Shown here: in pieces, positions 48,510 through 48,623 of the stretch
Position numbering within the stretch: the first letter of the stretch is position 1
Layout: each line of letters starts with the position of its first letter
Assembly: GCF_003334815.1 (NCBI RefSeq)
Contig: NZ_QOWO01000005.1
Strand: one strand, 5' to 3'
DNA length: 64,000 nt
DNA from: Escherichia coli
GTDB lineage: Bacteria > Pseudomonadota > Gammaproteobacteria > Enterobacterales > Enterobacteriaceae
Notes under the pieces: model-generated
Told to the model about the DNA's origin: nothing
The model's input: only the letters and a program-made list of their open reading frames with translations
The model's database searches: none
Program-made: the position numbers and the translations under genes

Positions 48510-48623
48510 GGGTGGGGGCCCTGCCAGCTACATCCCGGCACACGCGTCATCTGCCTTGGCTGCTTCCTTCCGGACCTGACCTGGTAAACAGAGTAGCGTT
48601 GCGGGAGAACCAACAGAGCCCCC
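48510..48623 (-). ncRNA. ffs: 4.5S RNA (signal recognition particle RNA)
   Basis: Minus strand reads GGGGGCTCTGTTGGTTCTCCCGCAACGCTACTCTGTTTACCAGGTCAGGTCCGGAAGGAAGCAGCCAAGGCAGATGACGCGTGTGCCGGGATGTAGCTGGCAGGGCCCCCACC. Confidence 0.93.

Follow-up and report, generated by a model that had tools for sequence, protein, structure and literature searches.

The closest counterpart of the gene studied here is ffs of E. coli K-12 MG1655 (b0455), whose curated product name is 'signal recognition particle 4.5S RNA'. 4.5S RNA is essential, its 5'-extended forms appear to be still functional, and it is a verified substrate of RNase P, which removes its 5' leader as it does in the case of tRNA and tmRNA genes (PMC5499578). 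The molecules themselves differ, 4.5S RNA being a hairpin with a 3' CCC, whereas tRNA is a cloverleaf with CCA (PMC5499578). Binding of the Ffh M domain has been assigned to the domain IV core of the RNA, and the NG domain of FtsY docks first at the RNA tetraloop, giving the 'early' SRP-receptor complex on a ribosome displaying a signal sequence (PMC4737761). More distant relatives are the Bacillus-type scRNA of about 270 nt, the large form of SRP RNA in bacteria, and the archaeal and eukaryotic 7S RNA. They belong to the same Rfam clan (CL00003) and, like the E. coli RNA, have the GGAA tetraloop and the core of domain IV. However, Bacillus-type scRNA has an Alu domain, whereas E. coli 4.5S RNA is the minimal form, one hairpin without it. 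A further parallel with tRNA and tmRNA genes is their use as integrase attachment sites: in some E. coli an integrase island is flanked by 22-nt direct repeats that duplicate the end of ffs on the 3' side. Integration into ffs has been experimentally verified in the case of Enterococcus phage phiEf11, and in S. pneumoniae it has been predicted (PMC12540744).

Here we analyze the ffs locus in a 64-kb stretch of E. coli DNA, referred to as the window. The locus shares with K-12 ffs its sequence, flanking genes, relative orientation, promoter region, fold and tetraloop. Within ffs there is no difference from K-12 MG1655; the host strain differs from it at 18 positions over the 64 kb.

Identity and surroundings of the ffs gene

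The gene, its family match and its neighbours lie as follows in the window.

48510..48623, minus strand: ffs, mature 4.5S (SRP) RNA, 114 nt, recognized by identity to K-12 b0455 and by its single-hairpin fold
48519..48615, minus strand: span of the RF00169 match (68.1 bits against 40), which is also the ffs feature in PGAP (SRP_RNA)
48046..48399, minus strand: ybaA, encoding a DUF1428 protein of 117 aa, the downstream neighbour of ffs (ORF list, K-12 and PGAP annotation)
48700..49089, plus strand: atl/ybaZ, encoding an alkyltransferase-like 'DNA base-flipping protein', the divergent upstream neighbour (K-12 and PGAP annotation)

The minus strand at 48510..48623 reads GGGGGCUCUG...GGCCCCCACCC (the full 114-mer is GGGGGCUCUGUUGGUUCUCCCGCAACGCUACUCUGUUUACCAGGUCAGGUCCGGAAGGAAGCAGCCAAGGCAGAUGACGCGUGUGCCGGGAUGUAGCUGGCAGGGCCCCCACCC) and is identical at 114/114 nt to the curated ncRNA ffs of K-12 MG1655 (NC_000913.3, 476448..476561), which bears out the 114-nt minus-strand match to ffs claimed in the first-pass annotation. 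The same annotation had placed the gene between ybaA and atl, and both neighbours are indeed found there in the ORF list and in the K-12 annotation. Identity to K-12 extends over 1044/1044 nt of the atl-ffs-ybaA region (48046..49089). Read as its reverse complement, K-12 MG1655 461071..525070 is collinear with the window as a whole, with 18 mismatches and no indels over 64 kb, and none of the 18 falls inside 48046..49089. Six of them cluster in 118 nt (1127..1244) in the 5' part of rhsD, a cluster that may mark a short tract where rhs copies have recombined or undergone gene conversion; the other 12 are single and scattered over the 64 kb.

Membership in the SRP RNA family was assessed with Rfam. 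The model for small bacterial SRP RNA (RF00169, Bacteria_small_SRP) matches the minus strand at 48519..48615 over its full length (model positions 1–97 of 97) with 68.1 bits, the gathering score being 40, and with E = 5.5e-13 in the scan of the whole window and 3.5e-15 in a local scan. Three weaker matches, from other families of the clan, overlap this one and were discarded in its favour. With both strands of 48400..48800 scanned at E up to 1, no non-SRP Rfam family was found. As far as sequence allows a test, all the features that define the RF00169 family are present. Because the Rfam model covers just the inner 97 nt, the PGAP feature is limited to them; the 114-nt limits used here are those of the curated K-12 record, versus 97 nt (48519..48615) in Rfam and PGAP. 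The genes for the protein partners, ffh and ftsY, are not among the genes of the 64-kb window according to the K-12 gene map.

Several other RNA elements were found in the window by the same means. The DnaX programmed −1 frameshift element (RF00382) is matched at full length on the minus strand at 31651..31715 with 96.8 bits; it sits inside dnaX, as in K-12, where both tau and gamma are annotated, and is thus known. Likewise known is the sroB match on the minus strand at 17784..17867 (82.1 bits), which corresponds exactly to K-12 ChiX (b4585, 507204..507287). naRNA4 (RF02564) is matched three times, at 16308..16385, 16409..16486 and 23547..23624, and the two matches within 16308..16486 are obtained with either strand. 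The matched sequences are intergenic, G+C-rich hairpin repeats that occur in pairs and look like REP/BIME elements.

Across the species, the ffs locus is found in 5425 out of 5426 complete E. coli genomes, with a median of one ffs place per genome in these 5425, and is named ffs in all records listed. This distribution bears on the possibility that the window holds a non-functional or redundant ffs-like copy, a pseudogene, instead of the working SRP RNA gene. We found no support for such a reading, and several findings speak against it: the locus lies between atl and ybaA in synteny with K-12, its sequence is identical to that of the characterized ffs, genomes carry a median of one place, Rfam finds the sole SRP match of the 64-kb window here, and the promoter-like site described below is intact. 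A pseudogene is therefore vanishingly improbable. Taken together, the identical sequence, the family match, the synteny, the hairpin with its tetraloop, the covariation and a promoter-like site at a fitting distance make it virtually certain that 48510..48623 on the minus strand is ffs, the single-copy E. coli gene for SRP 4.5S RNA; the analyses of the locus found no evidence against this identity. The gene is thus an already known one in its known place, and in itself offers nothing new.

Hairpin fold and covariation

Two elements within the RNA are needed to describe its fold.

48568..48571, minus strand: GGAA (GNRA) tetraloop, RNA nt 53–56, the apical loop in both the MFE and the centroid fold
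48559..48580, minus strand: domain IV core GUCAGGUCCGGAAGGAAGCAGC, RNA nt 44–65, comprising internal-loop nucleotides and the apical helix, in agreement with the Rfam consensus

The 114-mer folds as a single continuous hairpin of −57 kcal/mol, for which the MFE and centroid structures coincide, compared with an average of −44.3 ± 4.0 kcal/mol for shuffled 114-mers (z = −3.15). This single extended hairpin contains no Alu domain. The conserved GGAA tetraloop of domain IV, to which the first-pass annotation had pointed as a check, is present at 48571..48568, at the tip of the stable hairpin, and GUCAGG.CCGGAAGG.AGCAGC agrees with the Rfam consensus for the domain IV internal loops. The same annotation had made its reading depend on an SRP hairpin and on an Rfam match, and both were found (−57 kcal/mol, z = −3.15; 68.1 bits in the scan with the small bacterial SRP model, against a gathering score of 40). 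When a 250-nt precursor running from 48649 to the ybaA start was folded, the leader formed a separate small hairpin and left that of 4.5S RNA unaltered.

Conservation of the fold was examined in SRP RNAs collected by an exact search for the domain IV core GTCAGGNCCGGAAGGNAGCAGC, taking one genome per species. The pattern occurs at no fewer than 120 loci in many bacterial phyla and, among the matches listed, the 22-nt domain IV pattern also recovered loci of Bacillus, Neobacillus and Paenibacillus. The 114-nt equivalents in the matches listed (116 distinct sequences) and the window sequence, 117 in total, were aligned with MAFFT by sequence only, that is, the alignment was not structure-guided. 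The invariance of nt 44–65 in this alignment is imposed by the search pattern and hence is not independent evidence. Outside the searched pattern, A39 is invariant and A38, C41 and A69 are each at least 90% conserved (117 sequences, matches listed).

Applied to the same alignment of listed matches, RNAalifold revealed compensatory changes in 7 of the 11 consensus pairs, both sides having changed in 62, 46 and 27 sequences at three variable pairs of the apical helices. De novo it recovers just these 11 pairs, since sequences of different phyla align poorly in the distal helix, and the E. coli MFE structure was therefore counted on the alignment as well, with controls in which the partners were slid by 1–3 columns and with 500 shuffles. 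The counted structure derives from one of the aligned sequences (E. coli), which favours it somewhat. In the 117 sequences (matches listed), 69.8% of cells are paired in the E. coli hairpin versus 35–48% with slid partners, the covariation score is 0.381 versus 0.13–0.17, and double changes are seen in 838 cells versus 372–486 and in 38 out of 42 hairpin pairs. None of the 500 shuffles reaches the values of the hairpin for paired cells, covariation or double changes. The helices of the SRP hairpin are kept by compensatory substitutions across species.

Predicted expression of ffs, and integrase islands at its 3' end in other strains

Three features flank the mature RNA or overlap its end.

48656..48684, minus strand: sigma-70-like promoter from a promoter scan, with a −35 hexamer TTGCAA (48684..48679), a 17-nt spacer and a −10 hexamer GATAAT (48661..48656)
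48624..48649, minus strand: precursor 5' leader of about 22–26 nt, with the expected RNase P cut between 48624 and 48623 (PMC5499578)
48505..48526, minus strand: att core TGGCAGGGCCCCCACCCATTTC, comprising ffs nt 98–114 and 5 nt downstream, recognized from repeats in other strains and empty here

The site at 48656..48684 on the minus strand is the sole promoter-like one in 48350..48850, compared with an average of 0.3 in shuffles. Its −10 hexamer GATAAT is followed by the G+C-rich stretch GCGCCUG and ends 7 nt before 48649, which corresponds to position −26 relative to the mature RNA. According to RNA-seq, most 5' ends of the 4.5S precursor are at −26 and some near −127 and −153 (PMC5499578); an earlier estimate of the leader was 22 nt (cited in PMC5499578). 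Since the spacing of the predicted site coincides with the published −26 ends, it is probably the working ffs promoter. Downstream of ffs, no terminator-like site was found in the scan of 48350..48850. The lone terminator match of that scan, on the minus strand at 48632..48618, straddles the boundary between the leader and the mature 5' end and, with a shuffle mean of 0.7, was taken as a chance match. We infer that the 3' end may be formed through the terminal helix, followed by AUUUCU, with exonucleolytic trimming. Such 3' trimming was reportedly the subject of a study by Li, Pandit and Deutscher in 1998, cited in PMC12540744.

The divergent neighbour comes close to this promoter, and its start differs between annotations: atl/ybaZ begins at ATG 48700 in K-12 (129 aa), 16 nt from the −35 hexamer of ffs, versus ATG 48778 in PGAP (103 aa). 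The match to the ogt superfamily (TIGR00589, 53.2 bits) covers residues 32–102 of the 129-aa form. The disputed N-terminal stretch of atl (48700..48780, plus strand) also takes in, in antisense orientation, the minor ffs 5' ends near −127 and −153 (PMC5499578).

The route from gene to function would be as follows. ffs would be transcribed from the sigma-70 promoter, starting about 26 nt before the mature 5' end; the short leader would be cut off by RNase P and the 3' end trimmed to give the 114-nt RNA, expected to fold into one long hairpin. The domain IV internal loops would then bind the Ffh M domain to form the SRP, and the GGAA tetraloop would help the receptor FtsY to dock on ribosome-bound SRP. 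The distal end of the hairpin would subsequently take up the Ffh-FtsY GTPase dimer and trigger GTP hydrolysis, with release of the nascent chain to SecYEG. For RNase P processing and the Ffh/FtsY steps, this outline relies on literature on the identical K-12 sequence (PMC4737761, PMC5499578).

The att site at the end of ffs is occupied in some other strains of E. coli. In 64 out of 5425 genomes, less than 80% of a 321-nt query for the locus is matched; in these, the similarity breaks off a few bases downstream of the mature 3' end and is followed by a gene for a site-specific integrase. The island integrase, which matches phrog_1 'integrase' (E = 2.5e-37), is carried by 62 complete E. coli genomes (about 1%). 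This observation draws on the stretches L126 (19982-27786), L127 (13982-20963) and L002 (2713-4063). The island of strain NCTC9038, 7.8 kb long, separates ffs from ybaA, has 22-nt direct repeats TGGCAGGGCCCCCACCCATTTC at both sides and leaves ffs intact, 119 nt being identical at attL. Strain S1-INA-02-A has a 7.0-kb island with a different cargo and the same 22-nt repeats. The window has just one copy of the 22-mer, which is unoccupied, and contains no island.

Both islands contain a complete inverted attP-like copy (left arm, core and right arm) just 3' of the integrase gene, so that the integrase gene and the cargo each lie between inverted repeats, which are 139–144 nt long and 99–100% identical. 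Furthermore, a serine-recombinase/DUF2188 module is found at opposite ends and in opposite orientation in the islands of NCTC9038 and S1-INA-02-A, the outcome expected from inversion between inverted cores. Judged from this arrangement of repeats, the integrase gene and the cargo could each be flipped. We consider it fairly probable that the last 22 bp (48505..48526) are the attachment site of a family of 7–8 kb tyrosine-integrase islands with an unusual three-site layout, in which the inverted attP-like copy is added to attL and attR, and with potentially flippable segments. Beyond phiEf11, no other verified integration into ffs was found in the literature searched, and the E. coli islands may be catalogued elsewhere.

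Open reading frames drawn across ffs

Two open reading frames of the ORF list overlap the RNA gene.

48458..48796, minus strand: 112-codon ORF with an ATG start, running through the promoter, all of ffs and 52 nt beyond; judged not to be a gene
48547..48729, minus strand: 60-codon ORF with a GTG start, ending inside ffs; judged not to be a gene

The first-pass annotation had stated that two ORFs run through the RNA gene and should not be called as proteins. They are listed at exactly the positions it gave, starting 173 nt (the 112-codon ORF) and 106 nt (the GTG of the 60-codon ORF) upstream of ffs. Neither the 112-aa nor the 60-aa product has an NCBIfam match, in contrast to atl, which served as a control and does match, and both ORFs are unannotated in K-12 and in PGAP/RefSeq. 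When the 116 homologous SRP RNA loci (matches listed) were read in each sense frame, the RNA span was open in 23 of them for the frame of the 112-aa ORF, in 44 for the frame of the 60-aa ORF and in 70 for the third, a frame that E. coli itself has closed; hence none of the three is preserved. The exact 60-aa sequence is absent from a collection of 15 billion proteins. By contrast, the 112-aa ORF has been deposited repeatedly as a 'hypothetical protein', namely, from E. coli P12b (AFG39350.1, an exact match), S88 (CAR01799.1, UniProt B7MDX7) and O25b:H4 (ANK05803.1), as well as from Shigella dysenteriae (ESU77918.1). In its UniRef cluster, one short member, a 51-aa fragment, is labelled 'Transposase', and the remaining named members are 'hypothetical' calls by automatic pipelines.

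These database records, together with a frame that is open from an ATG, are what could be cited for the 112-codon ORF (48458..48796, minus strand) being a real protein gene that overlaps ffs in a dual-function locus. However, the ORF has no NCBIfam match and is annotated neither in curated K-12 nor by PGAP, its frame is open in fewer of the listed loci (23 out of 116) than either other sense frame, and conservation of the region tracks base-pairing, not codons. Moreover, its ATG at 48796 is upstream of all reported ffs 5' ends, at −26, about −127 and about −153 (roughly 48776) (PMC5499578). The GGGGAA that could be considered as a Shine-Dalgarno site directly abuts this ATG and is too close to act as one, and the ORF runs antisense into atl. 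A protein-coding role for the 112-codon ORF is thus highly improbable. Both ORFs are chance open frames in G+C-rich stable-RNA sequence, artefacts and not proteins, and the earlier reading of a 4.5S RNA gene covered by spurious ORFs is supported in full.

Since the 112-aa ORF has entered GenBank and UniProt, the warning against spurious calls at this locus is a practical one. The finding is relevant only to annotation hygiene: scans must recognize ffs, a textbook example of an essential gene for a stable RNA, and suppress the ORF calls that are drawn over it.
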